64,000 nucleotides of DNA, taken from IMG/VR virus record IMGVR_UViG_3300043467_001216; one strand, given 5' to 3'. The stretch is from a virus (lineage: Duplodnaviria; Heunggongvirae; Uroviricota; Caudoviricetes). Positions 101 through 27,519 of the stretch are shown piece by piece (positions within the stretch are counted from its first letter, which is position 1; every line of letters starts with the position of its first letter). The notes under the pieces were generated by a model. The model had not been told where the DNA came from, ran no database searches, and saw only the letters and a list, made by a program, of their open reading frames with translations. Made by a program: the position numbers and the translations under genes.

Positions 101-664
101 ATGAACCAATATTTTTTTAAAGTAACAAACGAAGAACGTGAAAATATTTTAGATAAACATAAAACAATCTACGATGGTTATGTTACTGAATACGGACAAG
201 GTAATACATACCCAATTACAGTTCAAGACCTGGCAAATGATAAACAAGGTATAACCGTTAACAGTAGAGGTGAAGTTAGTGGGTATAAAAACTTTGGAAT
301 TAATGAGTCAATCAATGAAATGAGACATGATGGTAAATCAACAGGTTTATTTCAAGAAGAAGAAAACAACTATATGAGTGTGGGAGCACCTTTGGATATG
401 ATTGCCGATAGACAAGATGATGTTAAACACGGAACTGTAGATTTTGAAGATGATATCGAATTTTTTGATTTAGGTGATGTGTTACCGTTTGAGGATGAAG
501 ATTATGAGGGTAGTTTTGATATTTATTTTCCTGAAGATGAAAATGACGATGAAGAAGTTGTATTACATTTAGATAGTGATTTTGATGAAGATTTAATTGA
601 ACCTTTACAGGAACAATTAGATAAAACTCGTGAAATGTTCTTACGTTTTAATAAATATAATTAA
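101..664 (+). CDS. hypothetical late/virion protein
   Basis: 187 aa ORF; TATTTAT at 79-85; N-terminal VTNEERENILDKH motif shared with other late ORFs. Confidence 0.8.
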   Translation: MNQYFFKVTNEERENILDKHKTIYDGYVTEYGQGNTYPITVQDLANDKQGITVNSRGEVSGYKNFGINESINEMRHDGKSTGLFQEEENNYMSVGAPLDMIADRQDDVKHGTVDFEDDIEFFDLGDVLPFEDEDYEGSFDIYFPEDENDDEEVVLHLDSDFDEDLIEPLQEQLDKTREMFLRFNKYN

Positions 665-717
665 TTGTTTTCTTAACTTTTAATTGATATTGTTATATAT
701 ATGTTATAAAATAACTT

Positions 718-1032
718 ATGGAAATTAAAGAACTCGTAGGATATTATGTAAATGACACAAGTCAAACATTAGATGTGACGTTTAGACTTATTACAGATAA
801 TGAAGATATCATAAGAACAGACCAAATTGATTTAGATGAAGCAGAATCGTTTGGTTTAGGTTTAGAAAACAATAATACAGACCCATTTGATTCTGATGAC
901 GATGATTATTTTGCGGAAATGATTAGAAGTTATGAAAGTGATTTAGAAGTCGATGAGGATGAGGTTATCAGTTTTTTAAATGAATATTATATGGTAAACC
1001 CTAAAAGACTACCAAAACCTGAATTATTTTAA
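718..1032 (+). CDS. hypothetical acidic protein
   Basis: 104 aa ORF followed by terminator. Confidence 0.8.
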   Translation: MEIKELVGYYVNDTSQTLDVTFRLITDNEDIIRTDQIDLDEAESFGLGLENNNTDPFDSDDDDYFAEMIRSYESDLEVDEDEVISFLNEYYMVNPKRLPKPELF

Positions 1033-1035
1033 ATT

Positions 1036-1068
1036 AAAAACCCCCAATTAAGGGGGTTTATTTTTTTT
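1036..1068. terminator. bidirectional intrinsic terminator
   Basis: AAAAACCCCC-AATTAA-GGGGGTTTATTTTTTT between convergent genes. Confidence 0.8.
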
Positions 1069-1408
1069 ACCATTTTCGTTTGTCAATTAGATGACCTTCA
1101 TCATCCCATTGTTTACCCTTTCTTTTTTCACCGTTGATATAAAGGACTTCAAAGACTTTTCTACCATTGTCATTATAACAATACCAATAACCATTTTTAA
1201 CTCCATGTGAATAAGAACCTTCACCAACGACTTTTCCTGATTCATTGTATTGAGTCCATATCGAATCCTTTTTACCGTTTTGGTCTAAATAACCAACTTG
1301 TTCAATTGTGTTATTATCATATTTTAACACAACCATTGTTATTTCTTCTTGTGCCAATAAAACATAACTGATTAGAAGAAACATTACTGAGATAATATAT
1401 TTTTTCAT
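1067..1408 (-). CDS. secreted MORN-repeat (YwqK-like) protein
   Basis: Signal peptide plus repeats resembling G.W..Y...G.....G.Y..G.K.G.W. Confidence 0.75.
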   Translation of the reverse strand: MKKYIISVMFLLISYVLLAQEEITMVVLKYDNNTIEQVGYLDQNGKKDSIWTQYNESGKVVGEGSYSHGVKNGYWYCYNDNGRKVFEVLYINGEKRKGKQWDDEGHLIDKRKW

Positions 1409-1495
1409 AATGCTACTTTATTATTAAATATATTAATAAAACGTTAACAAATCAAATTTAACCTTATTTGAGTAAAATTTAATATACGTATTGAT

Positions 1496-1732
1496 ATGAA
1501 AACAGTATTATTTGCGTTGATGATTAAAATTTGGTTTTTAGATGTTCAAACCAAAGAAACTTTACCAGCCGTTAAAGTAACCACAGATAAAAAAGTTTAC
1601 TACTCAAATTTTGATGGTTATGTTACCATTCCAAATGATGAGAAAGTGTTGAAGGTAACTTATAACACCTATAAGACGGTAGAGAATGTTAATGTTGGTA
1701 ACGACACAACAATTATGTTGGTTCAACACTAA
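1496..1732 (+). CDS. small carboxypeptidase-regulatory-like domain protein
   Basis: D..TKETLPAVKV...YSNFDGYVTI...LKVTYNTYKT resembles the Bacteroidota CarboxypepD_reg-like domain. Confidence 0.55.
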   Translation: MKTVLFALMIKIWFLDVQTKETLPAVKVTTDKKVYYSNFDGYVTIPNDEKVLKVTYNTYKTVENVNVGNDTTIMLVQH

Positions 1733-1737
1733 TAAAT

Positions 1738-2247
1738 TCACGGACCTATTCTTGTTAAATAAATGGTTGCGGATTGAGCGGGACCTGAACCACCGTAGAC
1801 ACCCCAATTATTAGTAGTTCTTAATACTAAACTTTCAACACCATCGTCAATAATTTTAAAGATACGTCTTCCACCATTATCCATAGTAATATCTATATAA
1901 CCTAAATCGTAGTTAGTGTAGTGATTAATCACCGAATAAACGTATCTATCACCCCATATCACAGTTCCACTTGGTAATATATTAGGATTAAAAGAAATGA
2001 CACTATAATCTAAATGCCATCTAGTAAATCCAATTGCAATACTATCCATTGGGAATGATTCATTTGGGTTTATAAAAATATCCCCACTATAATAAACCTG
2101 TTCGTTAGGGTTTGAATTTTCAATGTTAGAATAGGTTATCTTATCTATAATATACTCACCACTTAATGATAATGTCTTTGGTTGTGAGTATTGTTTATAA
2201 CAAGATGTTAAAATAAGTAATAATGGAATTATTAATAGATGTCTCAT
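1738..2247 (-). CDS. lipoprotein (lipocalin-like)
   Basis: Lipobox LTSC after hydrophobic leader; LSGEYII motif. Confidence 0.7.
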   Translation of the reverse strand: MRHLLIIPLLLILTSCYKQYSQPKTLSLSGEYIIDKITYSNIENSNPNEQVYYSGDIFINPNESFPMDSIAIGFTRWHLDYSVISFNPNILPSGTVIWGDRYVYSVINHYTNYDLGYIDITMDNGGRRIFKIIDDGVESLVLRTTNNWGVYGGSGPAQSATIYLTRIGP

Positions 2248-2309
2248 AATTTTATTGTTTACACAAAAATATGAAAATTTTCGAATATTTATAAATAAAG
2301 TCTTCGGAT

Positions 2310-2570
2310 ATGAATAAAATTGATAAAATCATAGATATATTAAATTCCCATACATTTTTTAATGACGAATCTGATTATGATGAATTAGGGGAACAGGAGG
2401 AAGCTGCGGCCGCCCCCTCTAGTTCAAGTGGTGGTGGAGGTAAACCACCGTACCCAACAGTTACTAAATGGGAGTCAGGTGTGACAAGAGGACCTGCAAA
2501 TCAAATAGGGTTAACTAAATGGGCCGACATTGTTAAAATAAATAGAGGTAAAGCCAACACTTTATTATAA
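2310..2570 (+). CDS. hypothetical late protein
   Basis: 86 aa; TATTTATAAATA at 2286; internal repeat TKW...RG.AN. Confidence 0.75.
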   Translation: MNKIDKIIDILNSHTFFNDESDYDELGEQEEAAAAPSSSSGGGGKPPYPTVTKWESGVTRGPANQIGLTKWADIVKINRGKANTLL

Positions 2571-2609
2571 TTTTTTTGTTTTTACTAATATTTATTTATA
2601 AAAATTCAG

Positions 2610-3824
2610 ATGGGTAAATTATTAATTACAGAATCGGAAAAGAAAAATATTTTATCATTATATAATAACCAAATTATAGATGAAAGTATCGTGTTTACCG
2701 ATTGGTTATCACCTGACGAAAAATACGCAATCTTTCTTGACGAACTTTACGATATTGAAACTAAAACTAAATTAGGTAATATTTGGGAAAACTTTGATAA
2801 TTTTAAATTATTCCTTAAACATTCATTTGACGTATCTAACTTACCAAAACAAATTAAAGAAGATTTTAACCTGTCTTTTGATAAAGTATTAATTACCGAG
2901 AACATTCAAAACATTATTGAATTAAAAAATGATTTTAAACAATTAATGACTGAAGGGTTATGGAGTAGTTTTAAAAATTGGGCGGTAGAAACAGGTAAAT
3001 CAAGTTGGGAAGGGTTTAAAGAATTTGGGAAAAGTGTTTATAAAGGAACTGGTGATTTTTTTGATAAAATCTCTAAAGGTCAATGGAAAGAAGCGTTTTC
3101 AATTATAGGTAAGGGTGTTCTTTATTTAGCCAGAAAATTGAGAAGTGCAATGTATAACCCAATAGGTATGATTTTAGACGCTATATTAATAGCATCTCAA
3201 ATTGGTATTGGTGTTCAAAAAGTGGTTTGGGGTATTATTGTAGCATTAGATGTTTATGAAATAATTACAGGTAATTACGAAGAACAATTACCAATATGGC
3301 AAAGACTTTTATTTTTAGGTGTCGATATCTTAGGACTAGTATTTGCAGGTGCCGCAGCAAAATCAGCTAAAGCACCACTTAAAACCGCCCTTCAAGGTTT
3401 AGAAACCACCGAACAAGTTGCGGTTGCCGTAACTAAAAATTCTTGGTTAAAGAATCTTTTATTAAAAATTAAAAGTGGTTTAGATAGTGTTCCAGGTTTG
3501 TTGAAACAAGCCTCAGAATATTTATCAAAAAAGTTTAAACCGGCAGCCAAATTTATTGACGGAATCCTTAATGGTCTTGGTAATGTTATTAAACAAATGA
3601 CTGATTTTTTAGCGAAAGTGTTTGGTTCAACTTCTAAACTCGCTAAAGGAACTAGAGCTGGTGTTGGTACTGCCGCATTAGTTGGTGGAATTGGTACTTA
3701 TGATGAATATAATAAAGAAAAAGTTACTAACACAAAAATTCAACTCGCTGATAAAATTGTTAGTAATCCTAATCTAGCTAATAGTATAAATAACAATTTA
3801 TTACAACAATTAAATAACGTATAA
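2610..3824 (+). CDS. putative virion-packaged membrane-inserting protein
   Basis: 404 aa; LITESEKKNILSLY N-terminus; several hydrophobic helices. Confidence 0.7.
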   Translation: MGKLLITESEKKNILSLYNNQIIDESIVFTDWLSPDEKYAIFLDELYDIETKTKLGNIWENFDNFKLFLKHSFDVSNLPKQIKEDFNLSFDKVLITENIQNIIELKNDFKQLMTEGLWSSFKNWAVETGKSSWEGFKEFGKSVYKGTGDFFDKISKGQWKEAFSIIGKGVLYLARKLRSAMYNPIGMILDAILIASQIGIGVQKVVWGIIVALDVYEIITGNYEEQLPIWQRLLFLGVDILGLVFAGAAAKSAKAPLKTALQGLETTEQVAVAVTKNSWLKNLLLKIKSGLDSVPGLLKQASEYLSKKFKPAAKFIDGILNGLGNVIKQMTDFLAKVFGSTSKLAKGTRAGVGTAALVGGIGTYDEYNKEKVTNTKIQLADKIVSNPNLANSINNNLLQQLNNV

Positions 3825-6802: not shown

Positions 6803-7294
6803 TTAATAGAAAGTTTTTTGAAATTCAACCCAAATTTCTTCAATATTAGGATTAATTACATTAGAAAATATTGATGGTTCAAATGGTTTAATTAATAATT
6901 TCATACCCGCTTCATCAGGTGTTTTATTATCCTTAACTCGATTACAACTTTTACAACAAGTAACTAAATTACTCCAAGTATTTCCCCCACCTCTTGATTT
7001 AGGTAATACGTGGTCAATGGTTAAGTTTTTAGAACTACCACAATACGCACATTTATGATTATCACGTCTAAAGACCCTGTGTCTATTTATTTTTAAAGTC
7101 CGTACTCTAAATCTAACATAAGATAATAATCTAATTATCAAAGGTCTAACAAGAGTAGTTGACCCGGCAATAATAGGTGATTCACCTGATTTCAATATTT
7201 CGGCTTTACCTTTAGTAACTAAATTAAAACCTCGTATTGTTGTAGTTACATTAATCGGTGTGTAATCAGCATTTAATACTAATACTTTGTCCAT
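6803..7294 (-). CDS. HNH endonuclease (McrA-like)
   Basis: [40 protein letters not shown]; start moved to MDKVLVLN. Confidence 0.9.
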
Positions 7295-7402
7295 TCTAAA
7301 TAATTTTACAACTAATATAGACAAAAAAAAATAAAACTCAAATTTTGTTTTTATGTGGATTTATATTTATGTTTGTCCTATAACTTTTTAAAACAAAAAA
7401 AT

Positions 7403-7822: not shown

Positions 7823-8371
7823 ATGAAAAAATTATTAATGTTTGGTTTGATTGGTTTATCGTTATTTAGTTGTGAAAATAATTCATCTAATTTAGATGTG
7901 TTTGATATGAAATGTATGAGTGATGGGGACACAATTGTAATACAAGGTTTGGGTGATTTCAATCAATTAGAGGTGTTAAGAATTAAAGACATTCTTGAAA
8001 GAAGATGTCACATCCCAACTAAAATTGGTGAACCACTCGAATTAACACCTGACAAATGTTATGAAGGTAAACTTAATATTGAAAAGTCTTTAATGGATTT
8101 TGACGATAACACAAATAAAATTTTGGTAACCAACACCAAGTGTTATTCAACGGTAGAAAAAAGACCTGTTGGTGGTGTTGGTGAATTGGGTGGTAATCTT
8201 ATTATAATTGGTAAAAACCCAGCTAACACAACTGAACGAGTATTAATACACGAAATGGGTCACTGTTATGGTCTTGACCACTGTGAAAACCCAACGTGTG
8301 TTATGTCACAAACTCGTGAAAATGATAACTTAAAATTAAATTTTTGTGACGATTGTCAAAAAAAGTTTTAA
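7823..8371 (+). CDS. lipoprotein zinc metalloprotease (archaemetzincin/M54-like)
   Basis: Lipobox LFSC; HEMGHCYGLDHC..PTCVM and C-terminal FCDDC. Confidence 0.85.
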   Translation: MKKLLMFGLIGLSLFSCENNSSNLDVFDMKCMSDGDTIVIQGLGDFNQLEVLRIKDILERRCHIPTKIGEPLELTPDKCYEGKLNIEKSLMDFDDNTNKILVTNTKCYSTVEKRPVGGVGELGGNLIIIGKNPANTTERVLIHEMGHCYGLDHCENPTCVMSQTRENDNLKLNFCDDCQKKF

Positions 8372-8377
8372 AAAAAC

Positions 8378-8407
8378 TTGACTACTAAAGAACTTTTACT
8401 AAATTTG
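8378..8407 (+). promoter_or_regulatory. Bacteroidota-type sigma-A promoter for leader 1
   Basis: TTGA (8378) about 18 nt upstream of TAAATTTG (8400-8407). Confidence 0.6.
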
Positions 8408-8433
8408 TTGATATATATTAAAAGAATTAAAAA

Positions 8434-8553
8434 ATGAGAACAACTGAACAACATATTAAACAAGTAAGTCAATCGAAACAGATTCGCGTGTGTAGCGTAT
8501 CGTATCCGATGTGGTTTATCACGTCATATGGTTCAGAAAACATATTAAGTTAG
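8434..8553 (+). CDS. leader peptide 1 of tRNA operon 1 (MRTTEQHIKQVSQSKQIRVCSVSYPMWFITSYGSENILS)
   Basis: 39 codons after A-rich start; codons 6-29 all read by operon-1 tRNAs; contains antiterminator strand. Confidence 0.8.
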   Translation: MRTTEQHIKQVSQSKQIRVCSVSYPMWFITSYGSENILS

Positions 8554-8612
8554 TTATAAACGTATAACAATTTGATAAGACCCCTGAACCAAAAGTTCGG
8601 GGGTTTTTTTTT
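8529..8612 (+). terminator. attenuator 1 (terminator/antiterminator)
   Basis: Terminator AGACCCCTGAAC-CAAAA-GTTCGGGGG-T9 (8578-8612); TGGTTCAG 8529-8536 complements CTGAACCA 8584-8591. Confidence 0.85.
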
Positions 8613-8621
8613 GAAATAAAA

Positions 8622-8688
8622 TTTGGAAGTTACGAAATGAAATTCGTACCTTTGACAACAGAAAAGTTCATTGACATATTGGTTTAGA
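8622..8688 (+). promoter_or_regulatory. sigma-A promoter plus boxA-like element
   Basis: TTTG 8622, TACCTTTG 8647-8654, GTTCATTGACATATTGGTTTAGA 8666-8688. Confidence 0.75.
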
Positions 8689-8695
8689 TAAATAA

Positions 8696-8782
8696 GGAGA
8701 GTATCTGGCAGGATGAAGAGCTACTCTTGAAAAGTAGTAAGACGTGTAATGGGTCTTGTGGGTTCGAGTCCCACACTCTCCT
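8696..8782 (+). tRNA. tRNA-Ser(TGA)
   Basis: GGAGAGT/ACTCTCC acceptor; CTACT-CTTGAAA-AGTAG; long variable arm; TTCGAGT. Confidence 0.9.
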
Positions 8783-8797
8783 CAAAAAAATAGAGTT

Positions 8798-8923
8798 ATG
8801 GTAAAAAGAGAAGTATTGACGGGAACATTTGAGTCAAGTAAAAGATTTTTAAGACAAGAGCCTAAAGAGGTTAAACTAAAATTCAGATTAATTAGAAAAT
8901 TAATCAAAAGGTTACATAAGTAA
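8798..8923 (+). CDS. small basic hypothetical protein (41 aa)
   Basis: MVKREVLTGTFESSKRFLRQEPKEVKLKFRLIRKLIKRLHK* fills the inter-tRNA gap. Confidence 0.5.
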   Translation: MVKREVLTGTFESSKRFLRQEPKEVKLKFRLIRKLIKRLHK

Positions 8924-8930
8924 CCATTAT

Positions 8931-9005
8931 TGTCCTGTAGGCGACGTTGGCAGAGCCACCACACTTTGAATGTGGATATCGCAGGTTCGATTCCTGCCGG
9001 GACAA
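8931..9005 (+). tRNA. tRNA-Gln(TTG)
   Basis: TGTCCTG/CGGGACA; CCACA-CTTTGAA-TGTGG. Confidence 0.92.
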
Positions 9006-9088
9006 CAATAAAACAATTAGTTATTTCACGTTAAAAGATGGTCTTATAGGCTCACGAAGGCCGTGTCAACATCAATAACTAATAAATT

Positions 9089-9161
9089 GGGTCAGTTGCC
9101 AAGTTGGTCAAGGCACTTGTCTGAAGAACAAGCAATGGGGGTTCGATTCCCTCCTGTCCCA
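9089..9161 (+). tRNA. tRNA-Phe(GAA)
   Basis: CTTGT-CTGAAGA-ACAAG; GGGGG-TTCGATT-CCCTC. Confidence 0.9.
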
Positions 9162-9241
9162 CGAGGTCCTGAATTAACAGGATACCCCCACCTCCGATAT
9201 GGCAGTCAGTCCGTTAAGCTGATGAAGTGGGGTTTTTATAT

Positions 9242-9318
9242 GGTGGCTATAGTGTTAGTGGTCGAGCACGTAAGTTTGTGGTTCTTATAGGTTGGGTTCG
9301 AATCCCAATAGTCACCCA
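9242..9318 (+). tRNA. tRNA-His(GTG)
   Basis: G-1 present; anticodon loop TTGTGGT; TTGGG-TTCGAAT-CCCAA. Confidence 0.88.
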
Positions 9319-9572
9319 ATTAATTTTTAAAACTTAGAAATCACAGAGACAGAAAAAACATTTATCAGTTCCGACTTAGAAAATGGTCGATGGTTATCTC
9401 CAATCGTAAGTGAAAGGAAATGGCAAGAAGAAAAATTAGTTGAGATATTCGGTCATTATCCGAACGCAAGTCCTAAATGGCTATATCTCAATGGTTTGAT
9501 ACACATTGCATTAGATTACATTAAACAAAATGAAGAAAAAATTTGACAAGTTGTAGGTTAAAAACCACAACT

Positions 9573-9770
9573 ATGAGTACAAACATCAACAGAGCAAAAC
9601 TGAACAAAGCACAAAATGGTAGAGAATACCGAAATAGATTGATAAATGACTTTTATCCAATTTATTGGGATGACGGAATTACTTTCTACGGAAACAAAAT
9701 GAGTTATCAAGTTAGAATGTATAAGACTTGGAAACACTACAGAAAAACTCAATATAAGGTAATAACCTAA
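9573..9770 (+). CDS. small basic hypothetical protein
   Basis: MSTNINRAKLNKAQ...MYKTWKHYRKTQYK; ATG 9573. Confidence 0.7.
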   Translation: MSTNINRAKLNKAQNGREYRNRLINDFYPIYWDDGITFYGNKMSYQVRMYKTWKHYRKTQYKVIT

Positions 9771-9865
9771 TAATGGGTGAATATTAGGTTAAAACCTAAT
9801 AATTGATGAATATAAGGCTGGAACCTTATAATGGTCGATTATAAGTCTCCAACCTTATTATTTGG
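9751..9865. repeat. four tandem 29-nt palindromic units
   Basis: Units at 9751, 9780, 9809, 9838; approximate consensus AATATAAGG-N4-AACCTWATAAT. Confidence 0.85.
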
Positions 9866-9935
9866 TTCCTTGGTGTAATGGATAGCACCTATCGCTACGG
9901 ACGATAATGTCAAGGTTCGAGTCCTTGGGGGACTA
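9864..9935 (+). tRNA. tRNA-Arg(ACG)
   Basis: TATCG-CTACGGA-CGATA; CAAGG-TTCGAGT-CCTTG. Confidence 0.92.
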
Positions 9936-9975
9936 CGTATCCGATGTGTGATACCGAGCTAGGTCGGTGTAATTT

Positions 9976-10063
9976 GGAAGATTACCCAAGTTGGTGAAGG
10001 GGTCACATTGCTAACGTGATAGGTCTGAAATATGACGCGTGGGTTCGAGCCCCACATCTTCCG
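9976..10063 (+). tRNA. tRNA-Ser(GCT)
   Basis: GGAAGAT/ATCTTCC; loop TTGCTAA; long variable arm. Confidence 0.92.
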
Positions 10064-10070
10064 CAGAAAC

Positions 10071-10140
10071 ACCGAGGCTTAGAGGAAAAGAACTATCTCT
10101 CATAAGGATGGTCAAGTGGGTTCGAAACCCATACTCGGTA
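10071..10140 (+). tRNA. tRNA-Met(CAT), atypical D arm
   Basis: ACCGAG/CTCGGT acceptor; loop CTCATAA; GTGGG-TTCGAAA-CCCAT; weak D arm. Confidence 0.7.
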
Positions 10141-10161
10141 CAAAAAAATATTACAAAGGTA

Positions 10162-10230
10162 TTGTGAGAATGGAAATGATTACTTATCTTTGTTAGACAA
10201 AAGAAAAGGTCTTTGACATATTGGTTTAGA
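10162..10230 (+). promoter_or_regulatory. internal sigma-A promoter plus boxA-like element
   Basis: TATCTTTG 10185-10192; GGTCTTTGACATATTGGTTTAGA 10208-10230. Confidence 0.75.
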
Positions 10231-10239
10231 AAGAAATAA

Positions 10240-10314
10240 CGGGGTGTAGTCTTGGGGTGAGACGCTTGGTTTGGGACCAAGAGGCGGCAGGTTCGACACC
10301 TGCCACCCCGACCA
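10240..10314 (+). tRNA. tRNA-Pro(TGG)
   Basis: CGGGGTG/CACCCCG-A-CCA; CTTGG-TTTGGGA-CCAAG. Confidence 0.95.
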
Positions 10315-10322
10315 AAAATTAA

Positions 10323-10396
10323 CGGAATGTAGCTCAGCTGGTAAGAGCATTCGCCTGATACGTGAAAGGTCGTAGGTTCGAACCCTACCATTCCGA
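10323..10396 (+). tRNA. tRNA-Ile(GAT)
   Basis: CGGAATG/CATTCCG; TTCGC-CTGATAC-GTGAA. Confidence 0.92.
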
Positions 10397-10522
10397 CTAC
10401 TTAATACCGAATCGGGTTTGTCAGTAAAGTGGGACCCTGCGACTATGACACTTAGGTGTAATTAGAGAAAATGACATTAAATAACCCACCACGGAAGGTG
10501 TTATCGGTGACCTTCTATTTTT

Positions 10523-10597
10523 GACTTCGTAGCTCAGTTGGTTTAGAGCAGTACACTTTTAATGTACGGGTCGTGAGTTCGATTCTCACCGGGGTCA
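10523..10597 (+). tRNA. tRNA-Lys(TTT)
   Basis: GTACA-CTTTTAA-TGTAC. Confidence 0.95.
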
Positions 10598-10605
10598 CAA
10601 TAATT

Positions 10606-10677
10606 AGCCCTTTAGCTTAAAGGTGAAGTACTTGTTTTACATACAAGATAGTGTAGGTTCGAGTCCTACAGGGGCTA
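10606..10677 (+). tRNA. tRNA-Val(TAC)
   Basis: CTTGT-TTTACAT-ACAAG. Confidence 0.9.
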
Positions 10678-10787
10678 CAAAATGTTAAGTTGGGTTTCCT
10701 AGTGGTAACGGTATGAACTATAGTAAGTAAGCCACAAGATTCTAGTAATAAGCGACAGATGGATTACTCGCGACTTAATATTTAATT

Positions 10788-10861
10788 GGACAGATGCCTG
10801 AGTGGTTTAAAGGGGTGGACTGCAAATCCACTATCCGGGGGTTCGAATCCCTCTCTGTCCT
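10788..10861 (+). tRNA. tRNA-Cys(GCA)
   Basis: GTGGA-CTGCAAA-TCCAC; U73 discriminator. Confidence 0.95.
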
Positions 10862-10887
10862 CAATGAAATATATTGTTTCATTATTT

Positions 10888-10959
10888 GCATCATTGGTGT
10901 AATGGCTAGCATAAATGGTTCCAACCCATTTGGTCAGGGTTCGAGTCCTTGGTGGTGCG
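10888..10959 (+). tRNA. tRNA-Trp(CCA)
   Basis: AATGG-TTCCAAC-CCATT; G73. Confidence 0.9.
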
Positions 10960-11030
10960 CAAATATCGTAGGAGAGTTGATTAAGTTCAAACCCGCCGTT
11001 AAATTGTGAAGGACAATCTACGATATATTC

Positions 11031-11113
<83 letters not shown>

Positions 11114-11191
11114 CAATAAAAAAAAATTTAAACCAATTGTTGACACTTTTCAAAACTTTGATATATTTAATTAGTAAAGAATAACAAAATT

Positions 11192-11266
11192 ATGCAAAAC
11201 TTGAATAACATACTAATAGCGAGAACGGAGGGAGACAATCCTTGTGTATCGGAGAAGGTGTGTTAA
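11192..11266 (+). CDS. leader peptide 2 of tRNA operon 2 (MQNLNNILIARTEGDNPCVSEKVC)
   Basis: 24 codons after A-rich start; codons 3-16 all read by operon-2 tRNAs; contains antiterminator strand. Confidence 0.8.
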   Translation: MQNLNNILIARTEGDNPCVSEKVC

Positions 11267-11322
11267 TTCATTAAACATAAAATTTAAATGAAACCCTTCT
11301 CCAAAAGAGAGGGGTTTTTTTT
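11251..11322 (+). terminator. attenuator 2 (terminator/antiterminator)
   Basis: AAACCCTTCTC-CAAAA-GAGAGGGG-T8 (11291-11322); GGAGAAGG 11251-11258 complements CCTTCTCC 11295-11302. Confidence 0.85.
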
Positions 11323-11411: not shown

Positions 11412-11484
11412 ATCCTCGTGACGGAAAGGTATACGTCCTTGTCTTAGAAACAAGGTTTTGTGGGTTCGAATCCCACCGAGGATA
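11412..11484 (+). tRNA. tRNA-Leu(TAG), short variable loop
   Basis: ATCCTCG/CGAGGAT; CTTGT-CTTAGAA-ACAAG; 5-nt variable region. Confidence 0.88.
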
Positions 11485-11490
11485 CATAAT

Positions 11491-11564
11491 GGTTCAGTAG
11501 CTCAACAGGTGAGAGCAGGACGCTTATATCGTCAAGGTTGGGGGTTCAAATCCCTCCTGAACTA
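11491..11564 (+). tRNA. tRNA-Ile(TAT)
   Basis: GGTTCAG/CTGAACT; GACG-CTTATAT-CGTC. Confidence 0.85.
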
Positions 11565-11595
11565 CTGAAAAAATAAAAAATAAAAAATAAAAATT

Positions 11596-12111
11596 ATGTC
11601 AATATATAGTGTTGGTAGAAAAACTTACGGTTCTGAAAATATTAAAATTTACGAATGGGGTGAAGGTAAAACAATTAAAATAGGGTCTTTTTGTTCAATA
11701 GCAACAAATATTCAAATTTTTATTGGGGGTAATCATAGACCTGATTGGATTACAACATTCCCATTTCCACATTCGTTTAGTGTGGGTCATCCGTCATCTA
11801 ATGGTGATGTTATAATTGGTAATGATGTTTGGATTGGTGCTAATGCAACAATAATGTCAGGTGTTATTATTGGTGATGGTGCCGTTATTGCAAATAATTC
11901 TCACGTAGTAAAAAATGTTGAACCTTACACTATTGTTGGAGGTAATCCAGCTAAACCTATCCGTAAAAGATTTGATGATGAAACAATTCAAAAACTTTTA
12001 AAATTAAAATGGTGGGATTTTAATGATGATGAGATAAATAGAATAACCCCAATTTTATGTTCTAGTAATATAAACGAATTGTTTGAATTATATAAGGATA
12101 AATTACTTTAA
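11596..12111 (+). CDS. CatB/Vat-like hexapeptide-repeat O-acetyltransferase
   Basis: IGSFCSIA, GGNHRPDWITTFPF, IGNDVWIG, VGGNPAKPIRKRF, LKWWD. Confidence 0.9.
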   Translation: MSIYSVGRKTYGSENIKIYEWGEGKTIKIGSFCSIATNIQIFIGGNHRPDWITTFPFPHSFSVGHPSSNGDVIIGNDVWIGANATIMSGVIIGDGAVIANNSHVVKNVEPYTIVGGNPAKPIRKRFDDETIQKLLKLKWWDFNDDEINRITPILCSSNINELFELYKDKLL

Positions 12112-12142
12112 AAAAAGTCTTGTATAATCAAAAGTAAATACT

Positions 12143-12193
12143 TAGATTTGTAAGACAAAAGAAAACAAAAGGTCTTTGACATATCGGAATAGA
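12143..12193 (+). promoter_or_regulatory. internal sigma-A promoter plus boxA-like element
   Basis: TAGATTTG 12143-12150; GGTCTTTGACATATCGGAATAGA 12171-12193. Confidence 0.7.
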
Positions 12194-12204
12194 AAAAATA
12201 AAAT

Positions 12205-12278
12205 GTCGCGTTAGACGAGTGGTTTAAGTCGTCACCCTTTCAAGGTGAAAATCACGGGTTCGAATCCCGTACGCGATA
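12205..12278 (+). tRNA. tRNA-Glu(TTC)
   Basis: TCACC-CTTTCAA-GGTGA. Confidence 0.95.
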
Positions 12279-12283
12279 CATAT

Positions 12284-12355
12284 CGCGGGATGGGGGAGTG
12301 GTCACCCCGCTGGGCTCATAACCCTGAGACACAGGTTCGAATCCTGTTCCCGCTA
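12284..12355 (+). tRNA. initiator tRNA-fMet(CAT)
   Basis: C1 mismatch; GGG/CCC in anticodon stem; loop CTCATAA. Confidence 0.92.
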
Positions 12356-12361
12356 CTAAAT

Positions 12362-12546
12362 AAAACAAGTGAGGACGGTGAGTAAACCCTCACTGTCTAT
12401 AAATCCCAAGACGGTACTTGATTCGCGGTAGTAAAGTTATTGAGGGTAGAATTACTATAAGTCTGGGATTAGCTACCCAAATGACGAAAATGTAATCACC
12501 GAGTAAAATTGGTTATGATGTGTAATGGTCACGAAAAACTTGTTTT
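12362..12546 (+). ncRNA. structured inter-tRNA RNA (~185 nt), family unknown
   Basis: Closing stem AAAACAAGT/ACTTGTTTT; hairpin GACGGTGAG/CTCACTGTC; AATCCCA/TGGGATT; possible pseudoknot GGGTAG/CTACCC. Confidence 0.6.
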
Positions 12547-12554
12547 TTTAAAAT

Positions 12555-12626
12555 GGTCTATTAGTGTAGTGGCTAACATACATCCCTGTCACGGATGTGC
12601 CGCGAGTTCGATTCTCGCATAGACCG
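12555..12626 (+). tRNA. tRNA-Asp(GTC)
   Basis: CATCC-CTGTCAC-GGATG; G73. Confidence 0.95.
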
Positions 12627-12847
12627 CGGGAGTGTACACAGTAGAGTTCTGTTTGAGAGAGGATTGTAACACGCACTTTAAAATGAGGTTACAAGGTATC
12701 AAACCGTTTATTCAGTTTTGACCGATAAAAACTGACGATTTTTTGAGAAATTTTAAGTCGATATAAAATTTCTTCGTGATATTAGTAGGTTTGGCCGCCT
12801 CATCACGTTAATGTGATGAAACATACCCAATGGAGTAATCACAACTT

Positions 12848-12920
12848 GCGGTAGTCGTATAATGGTTTATTATATAACCTTGCCAAGGTTAGGACGGAGG
12901 TTCGATTCCTCTCTACCGCT
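12848..12920 (+). tRNA. tRNA-Gly(GCC)
   Basis: TAACC-TTGCCAA-GGTTA; U73. Confidence 0.93.
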
Positions 12921-12969
12921 CAAAATAAAGGAGTTATAACCCTTTATATGGATGGTTCGAAACATCCGA

Positions 12970-13043
12970 TTGAGTATGGTGTACGGTGCACGGATGATGG
13001 TAATACGGATTCAAGATTAAGGTTCAATTCCTTATTATTCAGC
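12970..13043 (+). ncRNA. tRNA-like element lacking a canonical anticodon arm
   Basis: TTGAGTA/TATTCAG acceptor-like stem; GTGT/GCAC D stem; TAAGG-TTCAATT-CCTTA T arm; no 5-bp/7-nt anticodon arm. Confidence 0.5.
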
Positions 13044-13066
13044 AAAGAGAAATAACACTCTTAATT

Positions 13067-13139
13067 GGTCTCTTAGTATAATGGCTTATTATTCTGGCTT
13101 TGTAACCCAGAGATAACGGTTCGAATCCGTTAGGGACCT
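13067..13139 (+). tRNA. tRNA-Thr(TGT)
   Basis: CTGGC-TTTGTAA-CCCAG (C:C mismatch at the pair closing the loop). Confidence 0.88.
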
Positions 13140-13145
13140 CACAAT

Positions 13146-13217
13146 GGACTATTAGCTCAGCGGTAGAGCAATCGGCTGTTAACCGATAGGTCGTAGGTTC
13201 GAATCCTTCATGGTCCG
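13146..13217 (+). tRNA. tRNA-Asn(GTT)
   Basis: ATCGG-CTGTTAA-CCGAT. Confidence 0.95.
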
Positions 13218-13276
13218 CAAAAAAGAGGAAAAACTTGTGTAGGTGCCTCAAGGGACTGCTGCCCTACTACACTCAA

Positions 13277-13356
13277 GGACCTGTGGTGAAATTGGTATAC
13301 ACGCTTTCTTTAAGCGGAAGTTCTTAGGATTGTGGGTTCGACTCCCACCAGGTTCA
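13277..13356 (+). tRNA. tRNA-Leu(TAA)
   Basis: CTTTC-TTTAAGC-GGAAG; variable arm. Confidence 0.9.
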
Positions 13357-13442
13357 CAATAGTGTCTCAGAACGCTCTGATAAGGTAACTTATTAACGAT
13401 GAGGTCTCGGTAGACAGAACGCGTCTGATTCTACCCAAATTA

Positions 13443-13515
13443 GCGGGTGTCGTATAGTGGATTATTATATTAGACTTCCAATTTAAAGACGAGGGTTCGA
13501 TTCCCTCCACCCGCT
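13443..13515 (+). tRNA. tRNA-Gly(TCC)
   Basis: GCGGGTG/CACCCGC; loop CTTCCAA. Confidence 0.93.
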
Positions 13516-13630
13516 CAAAATAGACAACAAACTCTTCACCGAGGAAAACCTTTAAAACAGATTCACAACTATAAAGGTCGTTGAGTTGGGTAATAATAAA
13601 TGTGAGTATTACCTGTTGTCTTTTTATTAT

Positions 13631-13706
13631 GGGGGTATCGTATAATGGCTTATTACGGTAGATTTGCAATTTACAAATCTGGTTTCGATTACCAGTACCT
13701 CCACCA
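13631..13706 (+). tRNA. tRNA-Ala(TGC)
   Basis: G3:U70 identity pair; loop TTTGCAA; encoded ACCA. Confidence 0.93.
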
Positions 13707-13712
13707 TATTTT

Positions 13713-13785
13713 GGTCCTATGATGTAACTGAATAGCATAAGCCCCTTCTAAGGGTTTCGTTGGGGTTTGAATCCCTGTAGGACTA
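13713..13785 (+). tRNA. tRNA-Arg(TCT)
   Basis: AGCCC-CTTCTAA-GGGTT; T loop TTTGAAT. Confidence 0.88.
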
Positions 13786-14145
13786 CTCGTTGTGATGACG
13801 GATACGATGACAATTTGAACAAAGTAAATCACATTTATCAAGTTCTTTAATTATTTTATCCCAAGAACGTTTTCGTAAGTGAGTCCATTCAACATCTTTT
13901 TGTGATGGGTCACGATGATGAAAATCAAAAATAACATATGGTGATTTAGGGTATGAATTAGAACAATCTAAACATTTACCACCTTTATACTCAATAGCTT
14001 TTATTTTTGTTTTAATCCAACGTTCAGAACAATATTTATTGAAGCAGACTTTACATTTTGATTGTTTTGAAGGTCTATCGTTTTGTTGATAGAATTCAGT
14101 TACTGATTTTTCTTCATTACACGAAGTACAAATTTTAGTTTCCAT
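13783..14145 (-). mobile_element. free-standing HNH homing endonuclease gene
   Basis: METKICTSC..CKVC zinc finger; GGKCLDC, FDFHHRDP, LLCSNCHRIRH; ATG 14145 preceded by TATTTAT; tRNA 3' fragment on the far side. Confidence 0.85.
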
Positions 14146-14189
14146 AACAATAAATATGTGGATAGTATCAAAAAGACTAATTCCATAAT

Positions 14190-14214
14190 CAGGGTTTGAA
14201 TCCCTGTGGGGCAA
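14190..14214 (+). pseudogene. orphan tRNA 3' fragment (T arm plus acceptor strand)
   Basis: GGGTTTGAATCCCTGT at 14192-14207 is identical to 13763-13778 in tRNA-Arg(TCT). Confidence 0.75.
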
Positions 14215-14216
14215 CA

Positions 14217-14420
14217 ATGAGTTCGAGAAACTCAATGGGTTTTTAAGAGTCCCTCAAAACTTAACGGAACTGATACCATCCACGTTACGGGGTATTCATT
14301 GGGAATCGGAAGGAAGACTCTCCTATCCCCCAAGTAAGAGTTGATTTTTAAGCGGTAAGACGCGTTGGGTTTTGCATAAGAAAACTGTGAATATCTACTC
14401 TCCGTAATCTCAGGAGGGGT
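14217..14420 (+). ncRNA. structured non-coding RNA (~200 nt), family unknown
   Basis: No long plus-strand ORF; raised GC; multiple hairpins; terminal hairpin CTCTCC-GTAATCTCA-GGAGGG. Confidence 0.5.
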
Positions 14421-14421
14421 T

Positions 14422-14528
14422 TATTTATTGACCGAGTGGTTTAAGGTTGAGCATACATAAAGTCTGGGAATGTGGTATGTATGATACCTATACACGGGGA
14501 CTCACAGGTTCGAATCCTGTATTGATAA
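14422..14528 (+). ncRNA. tRNA-like RNA with enlarged central domain
   Basis: D arm ACC-GAGTGGTTTAA-GGT and T arm ACAGG-TTCGAAT-CCTGT flank ~53 nt with a CATACATA/TATGTATG stem and 16-nt loop. Confidence 0.6.
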
Positions 14529-14592
14529 CGTAATTCTAAACCAATATGTTTTTTTTTTCATTTAAGAATATTTATTAATAAACAATTTTAAG

Positions 14593-24972: not shown

Positions 24973-25047
24973 TTGACAAATCAAAAAGAAAGTCTTAAAT
25001 TTGTAAAACAAAATCGGAAAAGTCCGAAAGAGTTCTTTGAAAAATTG
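24973..25047 (+). promoter_or_regulatory. sigma-A promoter plus boxA-like element for the large ncRNA
   Basis: TTGA 24973; TAAATTTG 24996-25003; GTTCTTTGA 25032. Confidence 0.7.
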
Positions 25048-25926
25048 AATTATCCGTTCAGAATGTTTGATGATGAGACCCTTGTGGTTGATTTTGAGTA
25101 ACAAACTGATAAAGATATTTGGCCGTGTATGGTCATTAAATAAACTACGAAAGTAGGATAAAGTGGACCCCCAAGTGTAACGGGTCTGCGTCTTGGGAAA
25201 CTGAGGTCGAGTACACAAGCGGGATACCGTATAACCTTTAGTATCGAGGTCAACGATGTAGAGAAAGTGGTTATATGATTTGGTGATGTGGGTCATCAAA
25301 TTGAGGTGGGAACACCAATAGGAATAACTCGTAGGAATTATGTGAGAAATAGTGTTATCCGATATTATTATTACGAGTTCCAATATAAGAGGTGACTTAA
25401 AACCGAAAGGTATGAAAACAAACAGGTGGTGCTGACATTTTCCTTGATTATTCTTTACCAAAAGAATTTTCTCGAAGTAATCTTAAAATATTGAGGTAGG
25501 GATACTTCACAGAGTAGTTTGGTATTTCGTTGTTCAAAAGACGACGAATCTAAAAGACGGACCACTACTTTGATTCATCCACAACACAAAAACTTTAATT
25601 TACAAGGTTAATGTAAAAATTAAATTATAAATTTAAGCAAAAGTGTTCGTCAGGTAATAGTGAAAGGTGACTACATAGTAATGAGCAGTTCATTGCCTAG
25701 GAAGACCGCAAGTCGACCTAAATTCTTACCAAAAACCTCTAATCTCGCAAGGATTAATTGGGAAGGCATTCTCGAAGAGAGTTGAGTAATGAGAGAGTAA
25801 CTATTATCTCAAGGAGTGGTTCACCTAAAAAACCGTCACTGAGGAATACTTCTCAAAAGGAAGTGGATAAGAAGGGAAACAATAATCCTTCAAAAGGTTC
25901 TCAATAATACGTATAATCTCAGCGTT
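25048..25926 (+). ncRNA. large ornate ncRNA, GOLLD-like (~880 nt)
   Basis: No long plus-strand ORF; raised GC; many GNRA hairpins (CTAC-GAAA-GTAG, ACC-GAAA-GGT, GCAA loops); own promoter/boxA; next to a tRNA. Family inferred from size and context; ends approximate. Confidence 0.65.
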
Positions 25927-25937
25927 TTTTTATATAT

Positions 25938-26010
25938 AGCAGGGGGGAGGTAAGGTATCTCATCGGTCTCATAAGCCGACCCAAGCTGGTTCGATTCCGG
26001 TCCGTTGCTA
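25938..26010 (+). tRNA. tRNA-CAT (Met or Ile2), bulged acceptor stem
   Basis: TCGGT-CTCATAA-GCCGA; GCTGG-TTCGATT-CCGGT. Confidence 0.8.
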
Positions 26011-27130: not shown

Positions 27131-27519
27131 TGGTGGAGATAGAGGGACTCGAACCCTCGTGTCGTACATTTTAAGTATTAAGGACTACACGCTTAGGTCA
27201 ACATTTTCTAATGTTCCGAAAATAGTTATTTTTGTTCTTCACCATCGTAAAAATAACAACCAATGGACGATTCGATTTACGGACTCAATCGTTTTTCCGT
27301 CTTTTTAAAGACTTCTGTTCCTGGGTTATATGTCCATCGACCCGCGTCGTCGTAACTTCTTAAGCTACAACAACTTCTTCTTCACGGATTAATCCGATTT
27401 TAGAAAGAGTATTTAAAACGTTGCCGTTTGTACTTCGATACCATAGATTTAAGTGATAGATATCGTCTCACTGCGTGCCCCGAATAGTTAACCATGTCGG
27501 TCAATTCCAAGTTATCCCC
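27131..27519 (-). ncRNA. ssrA: tmRNA
   Basis: 5' GGGGATAA..GGAATTGAC; 3' GAGGG-TTCGAGT-CCCTC-TATCTCC-ACCA with G3:U70; tag frame GNVLNTLSKIGLIREEEVVVA* (27425-27360); upstream TATATTTG and boxA. Confidence 0.92.

Follow-up and report, generated by a model that had tools for sequence, protein, structure and literature searches.

A candidate ribosome-mediated attenuator whose leader codons match the tRNA block downstream of it in a T4-like phage

Why phages carry arrays of tRNA genes has been an open question for more than 50 years (PMC10264068), and the locus analysed here makes it more specific: what is a short open reading frame (ORF), followed by an intrinsic terminator, doing ahead of a block of tRNA genes when its codons call on the tRNAs of that very block? 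The locus lies in a stretch of 64,000 nt (hereafter the window) that comes from a large T4-like phage, with genes for the Gp23 capsid, Gp20 portal and terminase proteins. The closest capsid matches were those of Flavobacterium phage immuto (39%, the best cultured match) and of an uncultured 484-kb phage (34%). Promoter-like sites fit the Bacteroidota consensus TTTG/TANNTTTG (PMC6847099), from which we infer a host in this phylum. ARAGORN called 26 tRNAs in the window, and Rfam matches added a GOLLD RNA and a tmRNA. The tmRNA, which is phage-encoded (27131-27519, minus strand), was not called by ARAGORN. The GOLLD match (25510-25925) has a Bacteroidota-type promoter with a boxA-like site about 500 nt upstream and a tRNA-Met after it; the RNA of this region probably starts near 25040, and no leader ORF was detected in 24973-26009. 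Metatranscriptome runs had up to 34% of words in common; transcription of the locus is inferred from sequence alone. The features of the locus are collected in Table 1.

Table 1. Positions of the putative control elements and tRNA blocks in the window
Feature	Position	Strand	Description or basis
P1, Bacteroidota-type promoter upstream of leader 1	8378-8407	+	TTG-N19-TAAATTTG; pattern match, activity inferred
Leader ORF 1	8434-8553	+	39 codons; A-rich upstream, without Shine-Dalgarno
Segment 1 (protector; possible 5' arm of a pause hairpin)	8444-8456	+	Pairs with 8526-8536
Sensing zone, codons 6-29	8449-8520	+	All 14 block-1 tRNAs read, zero block-2 tRNAs
Segment 2, antiterminator 5' strand	8529-8536	+	Folding; own-tail versus swapped-tail controls
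Inner AU-rich hairpin with stop codon	8543-8577	+	Fold; compensatory changes versus L002
Intrinsic terminator	8579-8612	+	Hairpin 8579-8603, -18.7 kcal/mol, plus U9
P2, Bacteroidota-type promoter past terminator	8622-8654	+	TTTG-N21-TACCTTTG; pattern match, activity inferred
boxA-like element	8666-8681	+	Repeat family; recurs near 10210, 11382, 12171
tRNA block 1	8696-11114	+	Ser-TGA, Gln, Phe, His, Arg-ACG, Ser-GCT, Met-CAT, Pro, Ile-GAT, Lys, Val, Cys, Trp, Tyr
Leader 2 unit	11192-11322	+	24-codon ORF, antiterminator 11251-11258/11295-11302, terminator
tRNA block 2	11412-13786	+	Leu-TAG, Ile-TAT, Glu, initiator Met, Asp, Gly-GCC, Thr, Asn, Leu-TAA, Gly-TCC, Ala, Arg-TCT
ATATTTA(T), example positions	78, 2285, 2588, 14568, 40578, 42421		

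A first-pass annotation had proposed that codons 6-29 of leader 1 call on every tRNA of block 1 and on none of block 2. The codons are exactly as it gave them, and these 24 codons do sample all 14 block-1 tRNAs and, under standard wobble, are read by no others of the array. The second half of the proposal holds for this zone only, since codons 2-5 and 30-38 call on block-2 tRNAs (Arg-TCT, Thr, Glu, Gly, Asn, Ile-TAT and Leu). The Ile and Arg codons of the zone are ATT/ATC and CGC, while leader 2 uses ATA and AGA, and the zone lacks codons for Thr, Asn and Leu, whose tRNAs belong to block 2 here and to block 1 in other lineages. Could a short AT-rich ORF simply happen to match half of a complete tRNA set? 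The zone was picked post hoc, and 42.3% of phage codons are read by block-1 tRNAs. Given that share, however, the chance of a 24-codon block-1 run is 0.423^24 = 1.1e-9 at the isoacceptor level (4e-7 at the amino-acid level). Among the 15,712 codons of 47 window ORFs, the longest run of this kind was 13, and the maximum in 100,000 nucleotide shuffles was 18; coverage of all 14 tRNAs, given a block-1 run, had a p of 0.002-0.04. The match appears again in leader 2 (3e-5) and in 47 clusters of leaders with different partitions of the tRNAs, and permutation tests refute coincidence, to which we give practically no credence.

The count of 14 tRNAs in block 1 includes one gene that both search programs overlooked. 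ARAGORN and Rfam found 13 tRNAs in it; the 14th, with a CAT anticodon (10071-10140), was missed by both, yet it folds as a tRNA with a short, weak D-arm, and a tRNA at the same place in the relatives L002 and L004 is called Met-CAT. As it is without the initiator's three G-C pairs, we infer an elongator Met rather than Ile2. Block 1 also contains about four tandem imperfect copies of a 29-nt repeat (9751-9862). Degenerate tRNA-like elements that retain a T-arm lie at 12965-13045, 14160-14215 and 14428-14530; with a low threshold, ARAGORN calls the first of them Arg-ACG, and this element is found again in L004 and L028. HNH endonuclease genes are found on both flanks of the array (6803-7324 and 13783-14235, both on the minus strand), and one of them abuts tRNA-Arg-TCT.

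If the ORF senses its tRNAs, the position of the ribosome should decide between alternative structures of the transcript. Both pairings proposed in the first pass are present as written: segment 2 can pair over 8 bp with segment 3 (8584-8591), which is common to the terminator and the antiterminator, and the protector pairing can form as an alternative. The inner hairpin closes the antiterminator loop, bringing segments 2 and 3 together; two double compensatory changes in it between the window and L002 were read from the sequences. In full-length equilibrium folding with ribosome masks, the terminator won at every ribosome position and no switch was seen, the antiterminator fold being 6.4 kcal/mol weaker than the terminator. 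Thus, any switch must be kinetic, and its operation is inferred. We therefore replaced this model with folding of the nascent transcript, in which the RNA ends before the 3' arm of the terminator is free. Under these conditions, antiterminator occupancy exceeded 0.9 with the A site at codons 2-28, was 0.7 at codon 29 and was lost from codon 30-31. Dominance of the terminator regardless of ribosome position had been named in advance as the result that would refute attenuation; it was met at full-length equilibrium, but not for the nascent transcript. The boundary moved by a single codon for ribosome footprint edges from +9 to +15, and it coincides, at codon 29/30, with the end of the matched run. 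A ribosome stalled at codons 2-5 should anti-terminate as well, yet these codons are unmatched. The position of the boundary, together with the comparative tests below, supports the original idea of leader-peptide attenuation that senses the block's own tRNAs.

Support for the protector is more limited. In free RNA, it dominated for 3' ends up to 8585 and, together with the terminator, from 8603, but at 3' ends of 8592-8600 the antiterminator dominated (0.97), so that the protector of leader 1 is only a possible kinetic trap. It beat 99 of 100 shuffles, and it was significant in 15 of the 47 clusters. The claim that it forces termination when the leader is untranslated remains plausible, but weaker than the rest, because the protector loses to the antiterminator at 8592-8600 and is detectable in only about a third of clusters.

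Leader 2 appears to repeat the arrangement for block 2. Fourteen consecutive codons of its ORF (11192-11266), codons 3-16, are read by block-2 tRNAs only, ATA and AGA included, and in folding it switches like leader 1, with the boundary at codons 17-18 and the end of the matched run at codon 16. Unlike in leader 1, the protector wins outright. In 11 homologues, the antiterminator of this family covaries, with 97% of cells paired and double changes in 3 of 8 pairs of the helix (0 of 500 shuffles). Insertions and deletions among the homologues keep the frame, and this and the codon-level match are indirect signs of translation; in the absence of ribosome data, translation of the leaders is inferred.

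To collect related loci, we used a short leader motif, the boxA-like pattern and a terminator-plus-boxA pattern, and all but four loci were chosen without regard to codons. They contained 173 leader-terminator units with 107 distinct peptides. Of 105 viral loci that had upstream DNA and 8 or more tRNAs, 92 carried a leader, but this set is biased by the search. The partition of tRNAs varies between lineages, and the leaders follow the content of their blocks. Where a lineage has its Thr, Asn and Leu tRNAs in block 1, the corresponding codons occur in leader 1; a 636-kb phage (L093) has a leader with Leu/Ser repeats ahead of a Leu/Ser/Cys block, and another locus (L027) has a Lys/Ser/Phe/Trp/His leader ahead of such a block. 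Across the 47 clusters, the match of the zone to its own block was 0.79, versus 0.46 when permuted (maximum 0.57 in 100,000), and 0.77 versus 0.42 with 20 coarser families. Downstream of the boundary there was no match (0.43 versus 0.44), so that the match is limited to codons upstream of the antiterminator. In 24 complete blocks, an amino acid and its tRNA co-occurred for 19 of 20 amino acids, Met being the exception. At the level of isoacceptors, codons matched for Ile (p=0.0013), Arg (p=5e-5) and Leu (p=5e-4); the tests for Ser and Gly were not significant, with the Gly counts in the wrong direction in the single GCC-only unit. As the clusters are related and the pooled p-values ignore this relatedness, these values overstate independence. 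In the leader-controlled blocks of L007, L040, L159, L200 and L214, tRNAs with the stop-reading anticodon TTA were called; these could be suppressors or erroneous calls.

Leader peptides can act in trans, as peTrpL does (PMC7298713), a terminator behind a small gene is ordinary, and some N-terminal residues of the phage peptides are conserved. Alternatively, then, the ORF could be a test of translation whose effect runs via its peptide or some other mechanism, be it a trans-acting peptide, Rho control or processing of the RNA, with the terminator merely ending the transcript. However, the peptides are otherwise unconserved and track block content, and the match reaches the level of synonymous codons, which selection on a peptide cannot give. 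Moreover, the tail of the ORF pairs specifically, and covaries, with its own terminator arm: antiterminator occupancy was at least 0.6 in 46 of 47 clusters with their own tails versus 13 of 47 with shuffled or swapped tails, and the duplex of tail and own arm reached -13.9 kcal/mol, compared with -8.6 kcal/mol for control tails. As the codon match also stops at the antiterminator, we consider action through the peptide or another such route quite improbable, and retain attenuation by the translating ribosome.

Outside these phages, the arrangement was scarcely seen. Most of the tRNA-bearing loci among 52 terminator-plus-boxA hits in bacterial genomes were rRNA spacers; host tRNA operons lay outside this survey. 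The sole hit with a leader (L133) is a 3-kb contig of a metagenome-assembled genome binned as Saccharibacteria, where a leader and duplicated tRNAs (Trp, Ser, His, Ile, Asn) occupy positions 399-3143; it is possibly a mis-binned phage fragment. No leader was evident in Flavobacterium phage immuto, which has 4 annotated tRNAs, and inspection by eye of the array in crAss-like cr111_1 revealed a promoter-like site without a leader-terminator. When the two leader regions were compared with GenBank phages by BLAST, only tRNA or chance matches were returned.

How much of block 1 depends on read-through is a separate question, which turns on the promoters. The predicted start site of P1 is near 8412. 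A gene for a peptidase M54/M10-like protein (7823-8371) has its 3' end 7 nt ahead of P1. No terminator-like site was found in the gap between them, so leader 1 may also receive transcription from upstream. Calls of sigma-70 promoters were no more frequent than chance, so they were set aside and the Bacteroidota consensus was used instead. A further motif, ATATTTA(T), is present within 45 nt upstream of 19 of 73 ORF starts in the window, where about 0.02 would be expected per start, and upstream of 17 of 47 leaders; it is probably a phage-specific promoter element. Leader 2 has it 22 nt upstream, with no TANNTTTG at that site.

The first pass had overlooked the promoter and boxA-like element at 8622-8681. 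P2, if active, would bypass the attenuator: it sits 10 nt after the U-tract and is conserved in L002 and L004. The boxA-like sequence is identical to one found after tRNA-Ala in Bacteroidota rRNA spacers; a role in antitermination is inferred. The array contains four full Bacteroidota-type promoters (8622-8654 and near 10162, 11334 and 12120), all of them with a boxA-like site downstream, and P2 and the promoter at 10162-10192 could drive block 1 without read-through. As P2 follows the terminator, block 1 does not necessarily depend wholly on read-through in this phage. One could go further and regard the attenuator family as real but minor or partly vestigial here, P2 and the internal promoters making the tRNAs constitutively and read-through adding little, which the strength of the terminator relative to the antiterminator would suit. 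Against this, leader 1 retains the 14/14 match and every pairing, with only 2 amino-acid changes and compensatory changes in L002 and L004, and codons for Thr, Asn and Leu, whose tRNAs have their place in block 2 in this phage, are kept out of its zone. We therefore think a merely residual role unlikely. In the relatives, a boxA-like sequence occurs near 42 of 47 cluster terminators, but the full promoter pattern lies in the gap between terminator and tRNAs in 11 of 47 clusters only, in some probably by overlap with boxA. In many homologues, just 12-50 nt without a promoter match separate the terminator from the first tRNA, so that in most relatives the first tRNAs seem to be reached by read-through alone. 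In the present phage, P2 would give block 1 a basal level of transcription, which the attenuator probably supplements rather than gates.

Taken together, these results make it highly probable, in the absence of transcript, ribosome or reporter data, that leader 1 is a ribosome-mediated transcription attenuator with tRNA genes as its output. RNA polymerase would start at P1, a ribosome would load on the leader, and the two would race. If codons 6-29 were cleared fast, the front edge of the ribosome, from codon 30 on, would cover segment 2, so that the 3:4 terminator could form and transcription would stop near 8610. If any of the 14 tRNAs were scarce, cut, uncharged or under-modified, the ribosome would lag within codons 2-29, segment 2 would pair with segment 3, and polymerase would read through past the boxA-like site into the tRNA block, supplying the slow tRNAs; leader 2 would do the same for block 2. 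The output of such a sensor would be the total time spent over about 24 codons that cover every tRNA of the block, which amounts to negative feedback for each block. This direction of control is inferred, as is the physiological trigger, which could be starvation, plain demand, cleavage of tRNAs or loss of their modification.

More tentatively, the leaders might be the phage's alarm for host attack on tRNA, an inducible, block-by-block counter-defence that spans nearly the whole genetic code. Replacement tRNAs would then be deployed only once host tRNA decay, or a defence that targets tRNAs, takes effect. G-ending codons are over-used in the zones (131 of 303 versus 48-50 expected), with no enrichment of C-ending codons, and such wobble-read codons should be the first whose decoding slows once anticodons are cleaved or left without their modifications. 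We regard this as possible but doubtful. More generally, the codon-by-codon match of a sensor to each block implies production of the tRNAs on demand, in response to slow decoding. This speaks for the replacement of depleted tRNAs and against steady codon compensation. The question of phage tRNA arrays thereby becomes testable with a 180-nt cassette and a reporter. The leaders also allow the prediction of tRNAs in a block that are odd or have been missed, and a tRNA feedback cassette could help to balance translation in engineered cells.

Control by charged tRNA of parts of the translation machinery is known from pheST under the pheM leader. Aminoacyl-tRNA synthetase genes under a leader peptide or a T-box (hisS, PMC2965389) likewise let the supply of charged tRNA feed back on this machinery, but in each case the target is a synthetase protein for one amino acid. 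T-boxes bind uncharged tRNA directly, without translation; no T-box match was found at the phage leader with Rfam, and the leader is an ORF. The bmrCD leader (PMC4191407) also relies on ribosome slowing on a short ORF to release a terminator, but it controls a drug transporter and is unmatched to a tRNA set. The cryptic tRNA operon of cyanobacteria (PMC8421152) is an accessory array tied to translational stress, for which no codon-matched leader is reported ("leader" and "attenuat" are absent from the text). Studies of phage tRNAs against anticodon nucleases (PMC10264068, PMC11464382, PMC11555353) give a reason for a phage to replace depleted tRNAs; the parts of these papers available to us concern the action of the tRNAs and do not describe sensing or regulation of the array. 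No publication on leader-peptide control of tRNA genes was found in a literature search that left out most subscription journals; attenuation of this type was found for protein-coding operons only, and a tRNA-gene output appears unreported.

The nearest relatives in mechanism are the attenuators of amino-acid operons (trp, his, leu and pheA, and the multivalent thr, ilvGMEDA and ilvBN; PMC1183508). No trp, his, thr, ilv or phe leader family of Rfam reached its gathering cut-off at the phage leader (His_leader 23.4 versus 49 bits and Phe_leader 16.1 versus 55 bits), and the downstream genes encode tRNAs, not enzymes of amino-acid biosynthesis. What the two share is the design: a short ORF upstream of an intrinsic terminator before the regulated genes, control codons cognate to the downstream product (here tRNAs instead of an amino-acid pathway), and an antiterminator exclusive with the terminator, its 5' strand lying just past the control codons. 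Segments 2:3 and 3:4 are common to both, as are a 1:2 pairing, for which support in the phages is partial, and the prediction that slow decoding gives read-through. A race between polymerase and the first ribosome is known for trp and his (PMC1183508), and the extra hairpin that the phage leader has between the terminator and segment 2 has a counterpart in his. In contrast to these operons, which sense runs of 1-3 amino acids, the phage leader takes 14 inputs of about 1-4 codons each, distinguishes isoacceptors, and lies in a phage as one of two parallel units that partition the code; as read here, it extends attenuation to a non-coding output and to 14 simultaneous inputs.
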